Position numbers and translations under genes: made by a program. From positions 1 to 59,057 of IMG/VR virus record IMGVR_UViG_3300013005_000043: a stretch of 59,057 nucleotides of DNA; one strand, written 5' to 3'. Shown in pieces: positions 1-43,412 of the stretch. The notes under the pieces are model-generated. The model saw only the letters and a program-made list of their open reading frames with translations. It was not told the DNA's origin and searched no databases. Each line of letters opens with the position of its first letter. The stretch's first letter is position 1. Source of the DNA: a virus (lineage: Duplodnaviria > Caudoviricetes).

Positions 1-1781
1 GTGATTTTAACACCCGATTGCCAGTTGAGCGTTTCATTTCCGCTGCTATCTTTAAGTTGACGATTTTGCCAATCAATTGATGTCTTATTGCCAGTGTCAA
101 TTGTAGTTCGGTTTTGCCAGTCTACTGAATTGTTGGAACCTGTATCTCGTAGTAGTCCGCCGCCCCAATTAACTGTGAATGCTCCCGGACCATTATCTAT
201 TTTTAGCAATCGATCGTTCCAGTTAACTGACTGCGAACTCACAGTATCAACTAATCTGCGACCCTCCCATGCGACACTAAGTATAGTACTACTATCATAT
301 AGATCTCTATCATCAGCATTAATGCTTGTTGATCCCATTATATCATTAATGGCCCTAGTGACTCCACTAAAATCTAATGCAGTTACATCAGTTAATCCAT
401 TAAATGTTTGTAAATTAAATGAACCAGTTACTCCCAATGAACCTGTAATTTCTGCACTTCCGGTATATGGGAACGTAGGTGTACTTGGAGCATATGATGC
501 ACTTGTAGCAAATGACGCAGATGCTACACTCAAAGAAGAAGTAGCTACTGCCGTTGGTGTTCCGATGCTATTACCTACTAAAGTATATCCTGGTTGTATG
601 TTTTGAATTTCAATTTGGCCAGGGTTAAGGATAACAGCTTGACCATTTATCCCTACTCTAGTTACAATGCCTAACAATTGCACACTATTAGGATATGGAG
701 GTCTAGAAGTTGTAATTCCACTTCCTGTGTTAGTAAATAATTCTTGTCCTGCTTGATATGCAGTTGTATTAATGTTTGTTAAAAGACCAGAAATCAATGC
801 TTTACCAGTACCACTAGGTGCGATAGTTTCACTTGCTATATAAGTAGCCGGCATTCTAGCCGGGTTAGATGCATCGGCTATATAAACATCGGAATTAGCA
901 CCGGTTGCTCCTGATACGAATAATGGTATTCCGGAAATAATAGAAGATGTTTCTCTATTCCTTACGGTTTCATACATTGATTTTACATACTGTAAGGATA
1001 AATTTCCTGCACCATCTGTTTGTATATAGGATTCATTGCCATTATCTGCACTAGGATATATTAATCCGCTAGCCGTTAAGCCAGTTGCTACGTTAAATTG
1101 TGTTGCATATGAAGATGTTGCTGCATACGAAGCACTTATTACGTTTTGTATAGAAGATGTGGCAATTGCTATTGCTACGCCATTTGCATTACCAACCCAC
1201 GTATAGCCTTGTTGTATATTTGGTAAATCATTATAATATCCGGGCCCGTTAATTACACCCGATCCATTAAGTGCAGATTTTTCAACGTTACCTAATTTTT
1301 GTACTAATATTGCAGACCCCGTTGGTCGTATGTTTGTATAGCCGCCGCCAGCAGCAACATAAACTGAATCACCAGCTGCAAATGCTGAAGTATTAACACC
1401 GTTTATAAATCCGTTAATTAACCCTAAACCTTCATCTCCATTATTTAATGTTTCGCCGGCAATTACACCTGCGGGCATTCTTAATGGATTTGAAGCATCT
1501 GCGGGCCATACGCCGGCAATGTTTCCTGAAGTGCCTGATCCAGTTATATAACAAGGGGTTCCTTTGGCAATAGTAACACCGGATACATTTTTAATTGAAA
1601 TAGCAGTATACTCTACATTAGAAAAAGATAAATTGCCAGCACCGTCTGTTTGTATGACTTGTCCAGATATACCATCAACTGTCGGATATATCAATCCACT
1701 CGCAGTAAGTGATGTGGTTACGTTTAATGAATTTAACGCGGCATCGGAGCCAGACGTTATGACCTTTTTCCAAGATGGCAT
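1..1781 (-). CDS. Tail-fibre-like virion protein, 3' end runs off the window (absent from the ORF track)
   Basis: Manual translation from ATG at 1781 gives MPSWKKVITSGSDAALNSLNVTTSLTASGLIYP... It is Gly/Ser/Thr-rich, with an internal duplication and S(V/I)(D/N)WxxRxLxD repeats. AAGGA lies upstream. The N-terminus resembles that of the 2064-2900 protein. Confidence 0.75.
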   Translation of the reverse strand, partial: MPSWKKVITSGSDAALNSLNVTTSLTASGLIYPTVDGISGQVIQTDGAGNLSFSNVEYTAISIKNVSGVTIAKGTPCYITGSGTSGNIAGVWPADASNPLRMPAGVIAGETLNNGDEGLGLINGFINGVNTSAFAAGDSVYVAAGGGYTNIRPTGSAILVQKLGNVEKSALNGSGVINGPGYYNDLPNIQQGYTWVGNANGVAIAIATSSIQNVISASYAATSSYATQFNVATGLTASGLIYPSADNGNESYIQTDGAGNLSLQYVKSMYETVRNRETSSIISGIPLFVSGATGANSDVYIADASNPARMPATYIASETIAPSGTGKALISGLLTNINTTAYQAGQELFTNTGSGITTSRPPYPNSVQLLGIVTRVGINGQAVILNPGQIEIQNIQPGYTLVGNSIGTPTAVATSSLSVASASFATSASYAPSTPTFPYTGSAEITGSLGVTGSFNLQTFNGLTDVTALDFSGVTRAINDIMGSTSINADDRDLYDSSTILSVAWEGRRLVDTVSSQSVNWNDRLLKIDNGPGAFTVNWGGGLLRDTGSNNSVDWQNRTTIDTGNKTSIDWQNRQLKDSSGNETLNWQSGVKI

Positions 1782-1796
1782 ATCGTTTTCCTTTTG

Positions 1797-1858
1797 TGTT
1801 GTGGTTGGTTACATACACTTATGCCGTGCGTGTGCCCACTTCCTTGCGGCCTACAACA
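1797..1858 (-). ncRNA. Candidate structured 5' leader RNA of the tail-fibre gene
   Basis: GC-rich non-coding patch between a late motif (1864-1872) and the SD/ATG. Outer stem TGTTGT(A)GG/CCACAACA, CC-GCAA-GG GNRA hairpin, and ACACGCAC/GTGTATGT hairpin. Confidence 0.55.
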
Positions 1859-1863
1859 TTTAA

Positions 1864-1872
1864 TATAAATAT
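1864..1872 (-). promoter_or_regulatory. Putative late promoter motif ATATTTATA
   Basis: One of many ATATTTAT copies on the sense strand just upstream of structural genes. Confidence 0.65.
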
Positions 1873-2048
1873 CATTGTTTTAGATATTGCTCTTGTAATT
1901 TTAGTATGATATTGTAGAATGTTTCTACTTGATCACCGCGCACAGAAACATCTTTTAATAACAACAACAAAAATTCGATTTCTTGTTTTGTTAAATGAAT
2001 GTGCGTTTCGGGTTTAGATGCTGATTTTAATTTGTCAATTATGCTCAT
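1872..2048 (-). CDS. Small hypothetical protein, 58 aa (absent from the ORF track)
   Basis: MSIIDKLKSASKPETHIHLTKQEIEFLLLLLKDVSVRGDQVETFYNIILKLQEQYLKQ*. Fills the gap between two genes and has an AGTTATG start context. Confidence 0.75.
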   Translation of the reverse strand: MSIIDKLKSASKPETHIHLTKQEIEFLLLLLKDVSVRGDQVETFYNIILKLQEQYLKQ

Positions 2049-2063
2049 AACTAGTTATTTATT

Positions 2064-2900
2064 TTATGAATAAATGTATATATCTCCGGTATTAGTATCA
2101 ACATGTATTGTTCCAAAGCCATTACTAACACCACCGTAAACTGGTGCAGCACTTGGTGAAGTTAAACTAGCTTCTACGCCACCTGCATAAACTGCCGGAG
2201 AAAATGAATTGCTTGTTGCATTAAATGATGAAGTGAATCCCCATCGTGTAGTACCAGAATCGTATCCGTATAGTTCCCCAATGTTTTGCGTACCTTGTTG
2301 TATAACAATACCACCATCTCCGGTTGTATTTGATCCAGAAGCAAACAATACAAATCGATCACCTACTAGTAAATTTTGTGTATTTTGGAATGATGCTGTA
2401 CCTAATACAACTAAATCACCTGTCAATGTTAATCCAACAAATGTAGGAGAATCTCCTGTTTCCAATCCTAAATCGATTGTCGATCCAGCTACACCATTTG
2501 TTGTAAGTAATGCTTGCCCTTGAGCTGGACTCGATAATACTGATGCAGATACTACTGAGCTGCCTGCTAATATTTGTGCTTGAGTAATGCTATCACCTAA
2601 ATCAACAGAAACGCCTGCGATTGTTATTTCGGAATTAAGTATGCTAGTGTTTGGAATAAGACTTAAACCAAATGTTAGTGTATCGTTAAGTGGATTAGCT
2701 GATATAGTTAAACCTTGACCTGACGAAGATGCAAATGATAAACTTGCGGTTGTACTACCAGCAATTAAATTTGTTCCATTAAATGATGCGGTACTATAAG
2801 CATTTTTTGCTCCTAACGTTCCTGCAGTTAGATATCCAGCATCGTTATTTAATTGTGAAATATTACTACCCGATACTACTACTTTTTTCCAAGTTGCCAT
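2064..2900 (-). CDS. Tail-fibre-associated structural protein
   Basis: 278 aa, G/S/T-rich beta-type composition, MATWKKVVVSGS N-terminus, late motif at 2921-2928. Confidence 0.65.
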   Translation of the reverse strand: MATWKKVVVSGSNISQLNNDAGYLTAGTLGAKNAYSTASFNGTNLIAGSTTASLSFASSSGQGLTISANPLNDTLTFGLSLIPNTSILNSEITIAGVSVDLGDSITQAQILAGSSVVSASVLSSPAQGQALLTTNGVAGSTIDLGLETGDSPTFVGLTLTGDLVVLGTASFQNTQNLLVGDRFVLFASGSNTTGDGGIVIQQGTQNIGELYGYDSGTTRWGFTSSFNATSNSFSPAVYAGGVEASLTSPSAAPVYGGVSNGFGTIHVDTNTGDIYIYS

Positions 2901-2933
2901 GTTTTATGTTCCTATTTTATATAAATATAAGCA

Positions 2934-3266
2934 TCAATCTAAACCTACAAAAAAAGATCCAGATGTAAAATACATTCCGCCATTTGGTGCCGTACTTGTT
3001 AATTCAATGCTTTGCGTTGCTATAATTACTACTCCACTTTGTGATACTGTTAATATTGGTTGATTATTAAAATTTTTAATTAAAAATATATTGTTTATGT
3101 CACTTCTAATTTCCAATGAACCGGTGATTACTGCACTACCGGAGAATGGAAATGTATTTCCGCCGCCGCCGCCATTTAAAGCAAATGATGCAGTAATGGC
3201 ATAACTAGAAGAAATATTAAATAAAGATCCGGTTTGTAATTGTCCGGGTCTAAACTGACGTGCCAT
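2934..3266 (-). CDS. Small virion structural protein
   Basis: Likely start MARQFRPGQ, coupled by TAATG to the upstream stop. SASYA-like and FPFSGSAVITGSL motifs are typical of fibre proteins. Confidence 0.6.
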   Translation of the reverse strand: MARQFRPGQLQTGSLFNISSSYAITASFALNGGGGGNTFPFSGSAVITGSLEIRSDINNIFLIKNFNNQPILTVSQSGVVIIATQSIELTSTAPNGGMYFTSGSFFVGLD

Positions 3267-4489
3267 TATTGCCATCTCCCTTTAACTACAACAACATCTT
3301 GTGCATTAAGCGTATATCCTAATTCTGCAGTATCAAATACAATTGTTTGCGTTGTGATATCACTAGGTGTCCATGTATATACTGCTTTATCAATGTATTG
3401 TCCATTAATGAATATATCAAATTCATTTTTAGATGCAATTGCCAATGTTACTGGATTAATTGCAGCAAATGATGAAATTGTTACGGTAGTTGCATTTGAA
3501 TATGTTGCAATTTTTTCGGTTATATTAGTTAAATACGTCATTGCTTGTGCATTGATACTAACATTGACTCCGCCGCCTGATATAATTGCAGTGCCGCCGC
3601 TCATTATATTAGTTTGCAGCTGTAATAACTGAGCTGGAATTTCTAATGTTTCAAATATGTTGTTATCAACATCAACAACTTGATCAAATGTTACTTTCTT
3701 TATAGAATACATTTTCTTAATGGTTGACATTCGAACTTCTTGTTCTGATAACAATGTTCCTAAAACAGATAATGGAATTGATGCTCGAACTAATCGATCT
3801 TCTCCAATCGTATTTACCGTTTCAAATGATATTGATCCGATAGTTGTAGGAAATTTATTTGCATCATTTCCCCAAGAAAATCGACCATATGGTAAAATTT
3901 GATCAACTAATTCATTCATTTGTGTAGTAAAATCACACCATAACATCATATCATATTCTACAGTAACATATTTTGGTATATCAATAATATAAAATTGTTC
4001 TGATGGTTGCGGATTATTTTTTGGAATTGGAAACAATTCATCTTCATATCTATTTCTAGAATTATATTTACTTCGATGTACTATATAGTTTGCTGCATTA
4101 GGTCTGTTCACATCCAATGTTTTTTGTGCATCTCTTTCTCCTACAGAATTACGTTTTAGCATAATTAATGGAGATTGCAACATGCCCTTTTCATCACGTA
4201 AATAGCCTAATCTACGTACATTATCCCATTTTTCTCCGTTTGAAAATATCACCGGAACTGGTACTAATTCTTTATTCGCAGTTACTTGTGGTTGAATTTC
4301 ATTTTCAATATACCATTTAATTGCAAAATCAATATCGTAAATTGTTCTTTGTTTTGTTCGAACAACATCATCATCCCGACGAGTTTGCATTGCTCTGTTT
4401 AACGATAGATCAGGCGTTATTCCTTCCGTTCTTTGCGGATTTGGTTTATTTGTTTTTCTATCAATATCCTGTCTATTTAATCTAGGCAT
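3266..4489 (-). CDS. Tail completion / sheath stabilizer (T4 gp15-like) with C-terminal extension
   Basis: 407 aa following two neck genes. VPVIFSNGEKW...PLIMLKR and QMNELVDQILPY resemble gp15-family motifs. Confidence 0.6.
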   Translation of the reverse strand: MPRLNRQDIDRKTNKPNPQRTEGITPDLSLNRAMQTRRDDDVVRTKQRTIYDIDFAIKWYIENEIQPQVTANKELVPVPVIFSNGEKWDNVRRLGYLRDEKGMLQSPLIMLKRNSVGERDAQKTLDVNRPNAANYIVHRSKYNSRNRYEDELFPIPKNNPQPSEQFYIIDIPKYVTVEYDMMLWCDFTTQMNELVDQILPYGRFSWGNDANKFPTTIGSISFETVNTIGEDRLVRASIPLSVLGTLLSEQEVRMSTIKKMYSIKKVTFDQVVDVDNNIFETLEIPAQLLQLQTNIMSGGTAIISGGGVNVSINAQAMTYLTNITEKIATYSNATTVTISSFAAINPVTLAIASKNEFDIFINGQYIDKAVYTWTPSDITTQTIVFDTAELGYTLNAQDVVVVKGRWQ

Positions 4490-4491
4490 TA

Positions 4492-5007
4492 TTATCCTTT
4501 AAATGAAAATGCGTTATCTCCGCCTCGTCTTAAATTTTTAATACCCAATGGCGTTTGTCTTGTTGCATGTGCATTACACATAATAGAAACACTATAACCA
4601 TGACTATCACCATTTGGCCATGTTTCTGGATTTTTTCCTACAAAGTATTTGTTTGCATCGATACTATCTAATTCATAGTATTCATTATCCCAAAATACAA
4701 TGTCGCCAGCTTCTGGATAAAATCCTGCCCGTTCTACTAAATCTCTAGATACGCCAAAGGTCAATGTTCTTGTATATGAATGTCCGTAATCATCCATAGT
4801 TGATGATTTATCATCTTTAGTTATAATACATGGCAATAAGATTGAATCATAATATGATTTAGAATCAGATTCTCCGTATATATTAGATTCGGTTGTATCT
4901 AAAATCAATTTATAGAATTCAATTTCAGTATCAACAACTGCATTAATTATTTCTTTATTAATTGATGCTAAAAATTTAGCATCTCGCATTGTTCCAAATA
5001 GTGCCAT
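4492..5007 (-). CDS. Neck / head-closure protein (gp14-like)
   Basis: 171 aa with NIYGES and YPEAGDIVFWDNEYYE motifs, syntenic after a gp13-like gene. Confidence 0.65.
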   Translation of the reverse strand: MALFGTMRDAKFLASINKEIINAVVDTEIEFYKLILDTTESNIYGESDSKSYYDSILLPCIITKDDKSSTMDDYGHSYTRTLTFGVSRDLVERAGFYPEAGDIVFWDNEYYELDSIDANKYFVGKNPETWPNGDSHGYSVSIMCNAHATRQTPLGIKNLRRGGDNAFSFKG

Positions 5008-6243: not shown

Positions 6244-6269
6244 CTCTACACTTCCTTTTCATATAAATA

Positions 6270-10503: not shown

Positions 10504-10980
10504 TTATGCTCGTTTTGAATTTTGTTGCCTTACATTAAATCTAAAATGTTTTAATTCTGGTTTCTGAGCTAAATACCCTTGAAGTTTTTGTGATTCTAAT
10601 GCAGGATCTTGTCCTAATCTAAAATAAAAATATCCAATCTTACCAGATGGCGATACTGTTTTTTTAATTACGGTAAATCCTTTTCGTTCGGACCAATCTT
10701 GAATTTCTTGTGCTACTGCTTCAGCCGTTGCTGGGTCTCGGAGTATATATTCTATCCCACCTCGATAATCGGTTAAGTTGTTAACTAATTGTGCTTCTTC
10801 TAAATCTGATTCTCCTAGTTGTTTTTGAACTTTTTCCATGGAATCGCTTACTGCATCAATCGATGGAGCTAATTCATCAAACGCACCTTTTACTTTAGAA
10901 ACCATATCGGGATTCGGAAGATCAGACTGTTCGGTTAATCCAAAAAATTCTCGATATAATTTTTTAAATTTACTCATCAT
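10504..10980 (-). CDS. Hypothetical protein, probably head-associated
   Basis: 158 aa ORF in the head cluster with LTEQ and LEEA sites. Confidence 0.7.
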   Translation of the reverse strand: MMSKFKKLYREFFGLTEQSDLPNPDMVSKVKGAFDELAPSIDAVSDSMEKVQKQLGESDLEEAQLVNNLTDYRGGIEYILRDPATAEAVAQEIQDWSERKGFTVIKKTVSPSGKIGYFYFRLGQDPALESQKLQGYLAQKPELKHFRFNVRQQNSKRA

Positions 10981-10988
10981 GCACCTTT

Positions 10989-11017
10989 ATTATAAATAAT
11001 TTTTTTTCAATATCCAA
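10989..11017 (-). promoter_or_regulatory. Composite promoter: TTGGAT-N17-TATAAT overlapping TATTTATA
   Basis: Minus strand reads TTGGAT attgaaaaaaaattatt TATAAT aaaggtgc ATG. Confidence 0.65.
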
Positions 11018-11018
11018 T

Positions 11019-11396
11019 TTATCCAACAGAAAAATAACGATTTAAATGTTGTCCAATATTTTCATATGCTAGAGCCATTCGGTCTTGTGCTTCTTTAAGA
11101 TCGCGCGCAGCTTGTTCAAAATCACGATAATCTTCGTGCATTCTTTTATTACCTTTTTTATGAGCAACATTAGCCATCCAATCATCACTCTCAGTCATAA
11201 TTCTATCTGCACGTTCAACTATATTTTTAACACGTTGTGCAATTTCTTCTAAATCACCTTTTCCGTAAACCGAATCTCCCATTGCAGAAAAATTTGCAAT
11301 TTCTTGTACGAATTGTTGCTTTTCTTCGCGAGATAATGGCTTAGGTTGATCTTGCATCATAGTTTCTAAAATAAACTTTAAATTTGGTGTTCTCAT
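11019..11396 (-). CDS. Hypothetical protein in the head cluster
   Basis: 125 aa helical ORF, translationally coupled to the protease gene. Confidence 0.7.
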   Translation of the reverse strand: MRTPNLKFILETMMQDQPKPLSREEKQQFVQEIANFSAMGDSVYGKGDLEEIAQRVKNIVERADRIMTESDDWMANVAHKKGNKRMHEDYRDFEQAARDLKEAQDRMALAYENIGQHLNRYFSVG

Positions 11397-12031
11397 TATA
11401 TTATCCTACATTTACCATCTTCACATAAAATCGAAGTGATTATTTCGTTTGTTTTTGCGTATCTATTTGTTTTTATATTATTTTTATTAACTGATTCATT
11501 CATGTGCGCAGGCCGCATAAAAGCCCCATGTGTTGATGGATTTGATACGAAGTCCCAACATATCAATTCAAAATCTTCTTGTACTTCTACTACACCTTCA
11601 TTTCGTAATTCTTTTACTGATCCCAACCCACGTGATGAAATGCCTAACGTAATACCTGCTCTAAATAGTTCTTTAAGAATCTTACCAGATGGAGTATCTA
11701 AAATTTGTACAGCACCATTCAAATCATCGCCATTCCACCATATTTTTAAAACATTATGAGAAACGTTATTTAAGTTAACTACCGATGATTCGGGATGATC
11801 TAATTCTCCTAATGCTCTATGTTGATCTATATATTCTTTTTGATACCGTTGACATTCTCTTTGTAAAATATGTTTTGGATAAACACGTCCGTTTTGATTT
11901 TTAGCGCCTGCTCGTTGCAAAACACCTTGCACAACAAAACCACCAGGTAATCCATATGCAGCACCGCTTGATTCAGTTAATGAACCAATTGGCTTGAATG
12001 GCATATATTCTACTATTAGATGTTTTGACAT
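11396..12031 (-). CDS. Prohead core protease (gp21-like)
   Basis: NQNGRVYP, ALGELDHP, GISSRGLGS and DFVSNPS motifs. Confidence 0.95.
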   Translation of the reverse strand: MSKHLIVEYMPFKPIGSLTESSGAAYGLPGGFVVQGVLQRAGAKNQNGRVYPKHILQRECQRYQKEYIDQHRALGELDHPESSVVNLNNVSHNVLKIWWNGDDLNGAVQILDTPSGKILKELFRAGITLGISSRGLGSVKELRNEGVVEVQEDFELICWDFVSNPSTHGAFMRPAHMNESVNKNNIKTNRYAKTNEIITSILCEDGKCRII

Positions 12032-15538: not shown

Positions 15539-15590
15539 AATTTAATCTATTTTATTATAAATATAACTAGATGTAGAACATGAAGATTTT

Positions 15591-19422: not shown

Positions 19423-19451
19423 GATTAAATTCCAATTTTATTATAAATATA

Positions 19452-21488: not shown

Positions 21489-21511
21489 ATGTTCCGTTTT
21501 ATATAAATATG

Positions 21512-24193: not shown

Positions 24194-24219
24194 TGTGCGT
24201 AATATCTTTATTATAAATA

Positions 24220-31293: not shown

Positions 31294-32874
31294 TTATCCT
31301 TTAACTGTTATGTTTTTATCTAAATCTAAACGAATTAAAAAATTCATATCTACATCTGTGCGTTTACGTATTGGTTGTGCCAATTTACCAATAGCTAATA
31401 ATTCTCCTGCATCATTATATAAACCTATTGATGTCACGTATGGATTAAACGTGCTACCGGAAACAAAAGATCTATATGTTGCATCATCATCAGCAGTTAA
31501 TGTTACATTAGTAGACATATTGAAATCTCCGGCATCTAATCTAGCAATTACCGACAATTCATGAATTGTTACTGAACTTCTATATGATGCTGTAAACGGG
31601 GTTTTTATCATATCATTAACTCGATAATCTGCAGAAGAAAAAACAATAAGACCTTGTTTAGAAAAAACATTACCTACATATTGCGTTTGTAATGCAGTTC
31701 CACCTTCTGTTCGATCGGATAACGCACTTATCTGCGATGCGGATAATGACTTATTAAAGATTCTAATTTCATCTAAATATCCTTGTAGATTTGAACTATT
31801 GGTGCTAAAACCGCCTACTTTTAATGTATCTAAATTATCAATACGAGCTGATGCAGAAAACGGAGACGTAGCAATTACAAATAATGGTGATGTTGCAGAT
31901 GAATGCAATGTTCCGTTAATATACATCTGCATTAAACTACCAGATTTTTGACAAACTACATGATTCCATGAAGATGAAACTTGTGCAGATGATGTAATAA
32001 TTGTTTTAAATGAATTACTACCTGCAGAACTAAATATTAATTGATTACTACCACTTAATTCAATTCTAAACGGATATGTTGGCGATATGTTTGTATCAGC
32101 TTTTGTTATAACCAATTGATTACTAGTTGTAGTATTTCCACCGCTAATAAAAAATGAAACTGCATAATCATGATTTCGATCATATAAACCTGATATAGTT
32201 GTGTCAATATAACTAGATCCAGAAAACTTTGCAGCTAATCCTAAAGAACGTTGTTGCCCCGTTGTTGTTTTAATGCCTGGTACATATGTTATATTATTTG
32301 ATATATATGATGTTCTACTAGTATCAAAATATTCATTAAATCCTTCATATAATTTCACATCAGAAACAATTGACGCAGAATTATATGATGTATCATAAAT
32401 ATTTCCATATCGATCACTAGCATATGATCCAGAAACTGACGATGTAAATGAAAACGATGCTGGTTTAATTCCTTCTCCTATTCTAATTTGCGGAAAAGAA
32501 AAAATTGATGCAGTTTGAAATAATGATTTTTTTGTTTTAGTTAAATCAGTCGGCCCATATGTTTTAAACGGTTCTGATTTGTTTTTATAAAATAAATGAT
32601 TTATAGAAAAATATGTAACACTTTGCAGACTACCATCAATATTTGCAGCATCATTATATACTAATTCAGTCTCTAAAGCCGGCAATACATTTATGTCAGA
32701 ATAAATACCTTGCAAAGGTAAGACGCTAGAAGTAATACTTCCGGAATAGATAGTCCATTTTTTATACGACTGAAACGCATTAACCGTTACATCAGAAGAA
32801 TCAATCTTTTTAAAAACTGTTGGATAAACACCAACATATGAATCTTCTTGTATATCTGTTTTTATTTGTGTCAT
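31294..32874 (-). CDS. Virion protein with LamG/concanavalin A-like domain
   Basis: WNHVVC...MYINGTL...GYLDEIRIFNKSLS LamG pattern. C-terminal IGLYNDAGELLAIGKL is shared with the upstream gene. Confidence 0.8.
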   Translation of the reverse strand: MTQIKTDIQEDSYVGVYPTVFKKIDSSDVTVNAFQSYKKWTIYSGSITSSVLPLQGIYSDINVLPALETELVYNDAANIDGSLQSVTYFSINHLFYKNKSEPFKTYGPTDLTKTKKSLFQTASIFSFPQIRIGEGIKPASFSFTSSVSGSYASDRYGNIYDTSYNSASIVSDVKLYEGFNEYFDTSRTSYISNNITYVPGIKTTTGQQRSLGLAAKFSGSSYIDTTISGLYDRNHDYAVSFFISGGNTTTSNQLVITKADTNISPTYPFRIELSGSNQLIFSSAGSNSFKTIITSSAQVSSSWNHVVCQKSGSLMQMYINGTLHSSATSPLFVIATSPFSASARIDNLDTLKVGGFSTNSSNLQGYLDEIRIFNKSLSASQISALSDRTEGGTALQTQYVGNVFSKQGLIVFSSADYRVNDMIKTPFTASYRSSVTIHELSVIARLDAGDFNMSTNVTLTADDDATYRSFVSGSTFNPYVTSIGLYNDAGELLAIGKLAQPIRKRTDVDMNFLIRLDLDKNITVKG

Positions 32875-32880
32875 TATAGT

Positions 32881-32918
32881 AAAAACCCTGCTACATTTAA
32901 TATAAATATAACAGGGCT
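32881..32918 (-). terminator. Terminator-like hairpin enclosing a late promoter motif
   Basis: AGCCCTGTTATATTTA-TAT-TAAATGTAGCAGGGTT (16 bp including 3 G-U pairs), followed by TTT and ACT. Confidence 0.7.
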
Positions 32919-32936
32919 TAAATCAGTGTTGATTTA

Positions 32937-34896: not shown

Positions 34897-34939
34897 ATGT
34901 TTTTACCTTATTTAATATAAATATACAATCTATAAATTT

Positions 34940-43385: not shown

Positions 43386-43412
43386 ATGAATACTTTTATA
43401 TAAATATTAGGT

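Follow-up and report, generated by a model that had tools for sequence, protein, structure and literature searches.

A conserved three-way-junction RNA ahead of a phage tail-fibre-like gene, a candidate gate on fibre translation

Introduction

To our knowledge, structured cis-acting RNAs are rare in the structural modules of phages, and none is known on a receptor-binding (fibre) gene. A 59-kb virus contig, analysed here over its whole length and referred to as the window (estimated completeness about 35%), raises the question of whether such an RNA exists and what it might do. On the minus strand, a spacer of 90 nt separates a 58-aa ORF (1872-2048) from a fibre-like ORF (3-1781), and a reading of the letters alone had taken this spacer for a GC-rich, multi-stem leader RNA, possibly a protein-binding operator of fibre translation. 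Here, the leader is dissected in the window, followed through homologous loci and weighed against the classes of regulatory RNA that it resembles.

Results

Anatomy of the leader in the window

The minus-strand letters quoted in the original prediction agree exactly with the window over 1779-1872, and the description of the spacer as GC-rich is borne out: the spacer has 41% GC and the element within it 49%, while 14 other intergenic gaps of at least 40 nt have 4-33% and the window as a whole 32.9%. Likewise, the element was said to have no U-tract, and none is found near it, nor is there a terminator-like site within 500 nt; the GC-rich hairpin plus U-tract that marks intrinsic terminators and attenuators is therefore not found in the element. 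ARAGORN reports 0 tRNA or tmRNA genes across the window.

In the minimum free energy (MFE) fold, minus-strand 1797-1858 forms a three-way junction of three stems and about 60 bases, in which both the anticipated junction and its GNRA-capped helix (CC-GCAA-GG) are present. The fold has an energy of -18.1 kcal/mol and a z of -1.03, and 33 of 200 shuffled sequences are equally stable. Thus, the single-sequence fold of the window is no better than chance, and the case beyond chance comes only from comparative data. The parts of the locus are as follows.

1872-2048, minus strand: 58-aa ORF from a family of small, helical-looking proteins found ahead of almost all copies of the element
1864-1871, minus strand: AT-rich box TATTTATA, candidate late promoter, 5 nt upstream of P1
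1794-1860, minus strand: whole element as matched by covariance model R1 (junction plus 2-3 flanking bases), 67.3 bits, E 3e-16
1853-1858, minus strand: 5' strand of P1, UGUUGU, paired with 1797-1802 (MFE fold; columns 3-8/74-79 covary)
1852, minus strand: bulged base of P1, A here; U in 82, A in 51 and C in 5 homologues (n=138)
1850-1851, minus strand: 5' strand of P1b, GG, paired with CC at 1803-1804 (columns 10/73 and 11/72)
1842-1849, minus strand: P2 hairpin CC-GCAA-GG with a GNRA loop (MFE fold, alignment)
1839-1841, minus strand: J2/3, AAG, invariant (45/45 in the alignment columns)
1806-1838, minus strand: P3, with base UGG/CCA (1836-1838 with 1806-1808)
1819-1825, minus strand: P3 loop GGCAUAA, in which GGCAU is complementary to AUGCC of the start
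1809-1810, minus strand: two-base AA bulge of P3, then G-U, C-G and the distal stem
1805, minus strand: J3/1, a single A (A56), invariant (alignment)
1797-1804, minus strand: 3' strands of P1b (CC) and P1 (ACAACA) (MFE fold, covariation)
1782-1796, minus strand: unpaired, A-rich linker of 15 nt, CAAAAGGAAAACGAU, from P1 to AUG (sequence, MFE fold)
3-1781, minus strand: tail-fibre-like gene starting MPSWKKVITSGS (MPSWKK), ATG at 1781, 3' end beyond the window

Covariation among homologues and the strand of the RNA

The comparative case rests on an alignment of 45 distinct elements. Those of the window and of L016 were joined by 43 taken from a list of 46 unique ones, L014, L026 and L042 being left out as near-duplicates. 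RNAalifold applied to this alignment predicts a three-way junction. When the structure is taken as 18 pairs, 96.1% of the cells in the 45 sequences are paired, compared with 83.4 +/- 0.7% when the columns are shuffled (0 of 500 shuffles reach the observed value) and with only 31-46% for 3' partners offset by 1-3 columns (the slid control); of these two controls, the shuffle ignores relatedness and the slide does not. Eleven pairs have changed on both sides, and cells with a double change number 114, against 35.6 in shuffles. A second set of 72 distinct rows, gathered by an independent pattern scan, gives 95.9% paired and 27-49% after sliding, several P3 columns being fixed by the pattern in this set.

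The exchanges are seen in individual columns. G-C alternates with A-U at 11/72 (34 to 11) and at 37/69 (31 to 14), with no broken pair at either, and at 7/75 (23 to 21), again with no broken case, while 4/78 is AU in 27 and GC in 12; the distal pairs of P3 covary as well. By comparison, 10/73 is G-C in all 45 sequences, and 39/65 is G-U in 41 and A-U in four. Wobble pairs also point to the strand: U-G at 8/74 in 14 of the 45 and G-U at 39/65 in 41 of the 45 would be mismatches on the opposite strand, and the structure therefore belongs to the fibre-sense RNA. Compensatory pairs thus stand above both controls, and conservation and covariation among homologues, whose absence the original prediction had named as grounds for giving it up, are clearly present. 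We regard it as almost certain that the element is a real RNA structure under selection.

Conserved architecture

P1 consists of 5-8 contiguous pairs in 123 of the 138 variants parsed for leader features, followed by one bulged base and then by two pairs, the first G-C and the second G-C or A-U. P2 sits directly on P1 with no linker and varies in length and sequence, ranging from 2 to 9 bp in homologues, with compensating stems such as CCC/GGG, CCU/AGG and CUC/GAG in addition to long ones, and frequently with a GNRA loop. P3 opens with the base U-R-G/C-Y-A and continues with a two-base bulge on the 3' side, a G-U and a C-G pair, and a distal hairpin that is variable, after which a single A leads back to P1. 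Altogether, about 12 unpaired or junction bases are invariant, and it should be noted that the invariance of J2/3 and of the core arises partly by selection of the sequences, because the regular expression used to locate copies demanded AGT and the pattern fixed parts of the core too.

By eye, the variants listed fall into three architectures. In the first, that of this window, P2 is short and P3 is long, the latter ending in the loop CACGGCAUAAGUG; the second, that of Flavobacterium phage immuto, has both P2 and P3 short; and the third has a long P2 with a UGGC loop and a short P3 that is often capped by GAAA. The GNRA loop, also as judged by eye, changes place between lineages, capping P2 in some and P3 in others.

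Distribution and copy number

Searched with the fibre protein, viral contigs yielded 79 loci, and R1 finds one copy of the element in each of 72 of them, just upstream of the protein match. In the other seven, the match begins beyond residue 1 of the protein or falls at the locus edge. Elements before the ATG can be seen by eye in nearly all 79 loci, and BLASTN similarity upstream of the start is absent. The same holds for isolated phages: BLASTN returns only four records of immuto, with similarity that begins at the ATG and none in the leader, and the immuto element was recognised by eye and then confirmed with the covariance model. The exact core pattern occurs in at least 120 stretches of viral contigs, 78 of the 80 listed pass R1 with one copy each, and at least 141 unique variants exist overall, 141 having been parsed from the loci gathered. 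Single copies are the rule in long sequences too, since five of five large records of 114-160 kb, namely immuto (160 kb) and four contigs of 114-157 kb, have exactly one, and in the window R1 has a single match, the next best reaching 14.4 bits (E 0.33).

When 185,579 cellular genomes were scanned with the pattern, one of the 80 matches listed passed R1 and 79 failed. Set against the 78 of 80 among viral matches listed, this indicates that the element is phage-specific, whereas the bare pattern is not. For the same reason, the assignment of hosts from cellular pattern matches was rejected. The sole true cellular match, L235, comes from a 'Candidatus Pelagibacter' MAG; this contig of 15 kb keeps the same gene order and carries the full module of small ORF, RNA and MPNWKK fibre together with an MA-type paralogue (see below). 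It is probably of phage origin, either binned with the Pelagibacter MAG or integrated there, and it may be mis-binned.

Traces of the phage are also found in environmental RNA. Near-identical pieces (at least 99%) of window positions 1-5000 occur in metatranscriptome assemblies from lakes and rivers, which places the phage, or a virus closely related to it, in fresh water. Parts of the first 5 kb, small in each case, are present in 21 lake or river RNA runs, four of which were examined and yield 4-5 short contigs each at a depth of 2-4; one piece of 151 nt spans 1851-2001 and another ends at 1812, and these contigs carry no information on transcript start, end or strand.

The genes on either side

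The nearest named relative is immuto, a 160-kb myovirus whose homologue is annotated as 'putative tail fiber-like protein' and lies among structural genes. The fibre ORF of the window shares 77% DNA identity with it and 85% identity over the first 40 aa. Among the 80 pattern matches listed in viral contigs, 71 are followed by an ORF reading MPxW[KR]K, and the exceptions are three matches at locus ends, two that fail the model, one that is unexplained (L102), one with an insert of about 110 nt (L097) and two with homing-endonuclease insertions (L087 and L147). In L087, an HNH gene (1553-1795, minus strand) lies between the RNA element and the fibre start and reuses the AUGCCAAAU start; in L147, a NUMOD1 gene with a weak GIY-YIG (10525-11247, minus strand) holds the same place. 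The stop codons of both endonuclease genes overlap the first fibre codons. The insert of about 110 nt between RNA and fibre ATG is conserved between L097 (about 3950-4064) and L171 (about 11540-11651), and comparison of the L171 copy with Rfam yields only sub-threshold chance matches.

The fibre protein shares its N-terminus, xWKKVIVSGS, with a family of paralogues of the form MA[TESNQ]WKKV(I/V)VSGS, represented in the window at 2064-2900 (minus strand) and by 108 unique cases in related loci, and the RNA is never found before a member of this family. Both types, MA and MP, seem to be encoded in every one of these phages. Counted over unique contexts, the RNA lies before 145 of 153 MP-type starts, against 0 of 108 for the MA type. 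Five MP-type genes that lack the RNA occupy the other gene slot, and the tie between MP-type proteins and RNA may therefore reflect shared ancestry of one orthologous slot rather than function. The element keeps a fixed position and strand before one gene family, always in sense, as expected of a cis-regulatory leader.

On the other side, nearly every copy of the element is preceded by an ORF of the same family, 50-100 aa long, which has no match in Pfam or PHROG and falls in virus-only hypothetical clusters in the Atlas. Its products look like two-helix proteins and often come in tandem, as in L001 (2444-2626 and 2700-2924), and they may be fibre chaperones or adaptors. Where there is room downstream, as in 269 family members, the RNA follows in 180 cases and is missing in 89, the latter being mostly the first of a tandem pair; in L107, L133 and L136, a small ORF directly precedes an MA-type fibre-like gene without the RNA. 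The idea that the small protein is the partner of the RNA is weakened by this, since the family also precedes RNA-less MA-type genes; by eye, the family is not notably basic.

Promoter-like box, linker and ribosome binding site

The element was predicted to begin right after a late motif, and TATTTATA does lie at 1864-1871, five bases ahead of the first paired base. This box is found 10-26 nt before the ATG of at least ten other minus-strand ORFs, compared with 82 nt here. The window contains 21 occurrences against 15.6 +/- 3.6 expected, which is not above chance, so that only the placement is striking. Ten boxes precede successive minus-strand structural ORFs, at 2920-2927, 6262-6269, 10991-10998, 15556-15563, 19442-19449, 21502-21509, 24212-24219, 32901-32908, 34916-34923 and 43399-43406 (all minus strand). 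The boxes so placed look like a late-promoter or initiation signal of the phage, and late-promoter-like boxes at 10-26 nt from the ATG would therefore leave very short leaders. At 32875-32936 (minus strand), directly before an ORF starting at 32874, a TATTTATATTAAATG box is situated in the loop of a terminator-like hairpin, CCCUG...CAGGG followed by UUUUU.

Among homologues, a TATTTAT-like box lies upstream in 106 of 138 leaders, in which the stop codon of the upstream ORF and P1 are at least 12 nt apart, and in 93 of these 106 only 5-11 nt separate its end from P1. Were the box a promoter, the mRNA would therefore begin, at its very 5' end, with the junction. In a further group the box is missing; here the upstream stop codon abuts P1 (19 of 138 variants), and an SD-like site overlaps P1 (21 of 138, see below). 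Downstream, the linker from P1 to AUG is 6-25 nt long in the 138 variants, most often 9-12 nt, and at most 12 nt in 86 of them.

The claim that the element closes just before the Shine-Dalgarno (SD) sequence is true of the window, where GGA lies inside the 15-nt linker, but fails in some relatives, where the SD is inside P1: an SD-like 4-mer, mostly within AAGGAG, overlaps the 3' strand of P1 in 21 of 138 variants. Use of such sites differs between the groups of loci, with SD-like sites before 99 of 159 ORFs in the SD-overlap loci; the corresponding figures are 47 of 158 for loci resembling the window and 8 of 136 for those resembling immuto. L235, itself of the SD type, has GGAGG just 3' of P1 and not within it.

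Complementarity between the hairpin loops and the start codon region

The variable hairpins contain GGC[AG] in 82 of 137 variants, compared with 11.8 +/- 3.3 in shuffles (maximum 25). The motif is complementary to the UGCC of AUG-CCA, is carried on P3 or P2 depending on lineage and is missing from 55 variants; in the window, GGCAU at 1821-1825 is a possible partner of AUGCC at 1777-1781. An invariant start offers no covariation, so that pairing between loop and start is a lead and not a finding. UGGC-type loops go with CCA as the second codon in 23 of 23 cases, compared with 45 of 58 for other GGC loops, a weak difference that is confounded by relatedness. Another candidate pairing, that of an invariant CCAAC with GUUGG in codons 3-4, was rejected, as the third codon varies (AAU, AAC, UCU, UCA). 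It is a speculative and rather unlikely extension of the lead that the junction is the sensor of a new class of regulatory RNA, be it a riboswitch for the state of the infected cell or a new self-cleaving ribozyme, which would time the receptor-binding fibre and would do so, in many variants, through long-range pairing between the GGCA loop and UGCC.

Searches for a known identity

As the original prediction had it, no riboswitch or ribozyme already known can be matched: none of the 4227 models of Rfam 15 reaches its gathering score anywhere in the window, and there are 0 matches in 1600-2100 even at E<=10, which includes the models of hammerhead, twister, twister-sister, pistol, hatchet, hairpin and HDV. 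Kink-turn and hammerhead cores were set aside too, as they do not fit the strands of the junction in an informal comparison by eye with the consensus. A search of the literature returned no description of such an element. Thus, in the proposal of an undescribed cis-regulatory RNA that acts as an operator and sets fibre stoichiometry, the first half stands, in that covariation, Rfam and the literature agree on an undescribed, conserved and structured RNA on the mRNA strand that is tied to the fibre start; the second half keeps its conditional form, and the element may be such an operator.

Discussion

A candidate gate on fibre translation

The reading that we favour, with a probability of roughly 0.45, is that the element is a cis-acting gate on fibre translation, probably set by a trans-acting factor. 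The ribosome, through its 30S subunit, covers roughly -20 to +15 around the start codon. P1 closes 6-25 nt upstream of the AUG, so that the junction, once folded, covers the upstream portion of the ribosome binding site. Acting in cis on translation initiation of the fibre gene, the element would, in SD-using relatives, bury part of the SD, so that fibre synthesis would depend on whether the junction is folded or opened. In the window and in many other variants, occlusion would be steric at best, because the SD-like GGA and the AUG lie outside P1. Recognition of the folded state by a trans-acting factor is suggested by the many unpaired bases that are invariant; this factor would most likely be a protein, of the phage or of its host, serving as repressor or activator, and the junction would be more than a plain hairpin. 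Initiation control is preferred to a role linked to the promoter or the 5' end because the neighbouring start site is the constant feature: the element lies behind an AT-rich box in 106 of 138 variants or directly behind a stop codon, and hence the downstream start site is constant and the upstream context is not. What the comparison shows is the structure with its strand and conservation, a fixed place before the AUG and, in one clade, the overlap with the SD; any effect on translation, the direction of such an effect and a partner of whatever kind are inferred.

Weighing the alternatives

Several other explanations are less probable. The element could be a riboswitch, that is, an aptamer for a small molecule or ion whose ligand stabilises P1 and thereby shuts or opens the fibre start. 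Purine-type and other translational riboswitches are built with a closing P1 over the SD, and the compact three-way junction with its peripheral hairpins of variable length, its dozen or so invariant bases and a closing helix that overlaps the SD in 21 of 138 variants is of that build, while the switch of the GNRA loop between P2 and P3, as seen by eye, hints at a tertiary fold. Nevertheless, there is one copy per genome and always before a structural gene, never a metabolic or transport gene; no Rfam riboswitch matches, an alternative pairing against P1 was not found, and the gene context, fibre only, suggests no candidate ligand; we hold a riboswitch to be improbable. A constitutive device that needs no trans factor, in which the junction couples the fibre gene to the upstream ORF or to the 5' end or simply damps initiation to a fixed, low level, draws on the 19 of 138 variants in which the stop codon abuts P1 and the SD is partly in P1, given that a terminating ribosome that melts P1 and frees the SD is classic translational coupling; a small ORF of one family before nearly every copy fits as well. 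For such a purpose, however, a plain hairpin would be enough, and the invariant AAG, the AA bulge, the G-U and the single A, conserved among variants with little other sequence in common, are left unexplained, just as the box and at least 12 nt between stop codon and P1 in 106 of 138 variants do not suit coupling; we do not think this device probable. Ribosome hopping from the small ORF to the fibre ORF is rejected, as a matching pair of take-off and landing codons is not conserved and, in most variants, a box and a spacer intervene.

Other possibilities place the element outside translation. As a self-cleaving ribozyme, or a structure that is processed by RNase or stabilises the RNA, it would create or protect the 5' end of fibre mRNA. 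Many small ribozyme classes occur in phage genomes, and the element resembles them in size and conservation; in 93 of 138 variants a promoter-like box ends 5-11 nt before it, which may put it at the very start of the transcript, and in other variants it is intercistronic. Against this, the known ribozyme models have no match even at E<=10 and the junction strands (0, 3 and 1 nt) are unlike the hammerhead core; we hold this explanation to be quite improbable. Far less probable is an element acting at the level of transcription, the nascent RNA modifying RNA polymerase in the manner of put-like antitermination or causing it to pause just past the late promoter: a promoter-like box immediately upstream in most variants and the long gene that follows would suit it, but box-less copies directly after a stop codon (19-32 of 138) would not, the distance that is tightly kept is that to the AUG and not that to the box, and the window has no terminators nearby. 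Hardly credible is the view that there is no functional RNA at all, and that a DNA-level signal, such as a site of recombination or homing on the edge of the exchangeable fibre module, or chance accounts for the element. In its favour, the element travels with the conserved first 28 or so codons of fibre genes that are otherwise very different, and homing-endonuclease genes lie beside it in two loci; yet three helices covary, the G-U pairs fit one strand and replaced hairpins still pair, by which this view is largely refuted.

Comparison with known systems

The proposed gate on translation has its nearest precedents among phage operators, including those of Mu Com/mom, T4 gp32, gp43 and RegA, and MS2 coat/replicase, in which a cis structure abuts the start of one gene, is present once per genome and, as the element would, sets the amount or timing of a protein. 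These operators are, however, single hairpins, a pseudoknot or unstructured, have a known protein and are not known to include one that controls a fibre gene, whereas the element is a three-way junction with about 12 invariant bases that spans many phage lineages. Leaders of ribosomal-protein genes, as in the case of Geobacillus S15, come close in another respect, with a three-way junction and a conserved G-U beside a bulge at the ribosome binding site, and from this analogy autogenous control would be a possible logic; yet there is no match in sequence or model, and the fibre has no known RNA-binding role to mimic.

Three-way-junction aptamers of the purine class share with the element a closing P1, hairpins that vary, junction bases that are invariant and, in one clade, overlap with the SD, but no Rfam model matches at E<=10 and the structural gene context implies no ligand. 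Phage self-cleaving ribozymes (hammerhead, twister, pistol, hatchet) are alike in size, phage setting, intergenic position and conserved core, and differ in that no model matches and in that the junction strand lengths depart from the hammerhead core. The put RNAs of HK022 are likewise structured cis RNAs right after a promoter, but they consist of two stem-loops that act on RNA polymerase, whereas the constant neighbour of the element is the start codon and some copies have no box. By analogy, then, the element would come nearest in its workings to the translational operators of phages, to leaders of ribosomal-protein genes or to a riboswitch gated by P1, while belonging to none of the classes against which it was compared.

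Implications

The covariation support is good enough for the entry of a new RNA family, and the element is widespread, being present in well over 100 related phages from aquatic settings and crossing phage lineages with and without use of the Shine-Dalgarno sequence. Should small-molecule binding or self-cleavage prove true, the RNA would constitute a new class. If fibre translation is gated as we favour, it would offer a handle on the timing or amount of the protein that determines host range. In addition, the covariance model locates fibre-gene starts in uncultivated phages of the Flavobacteria type and in related aquatic ones.
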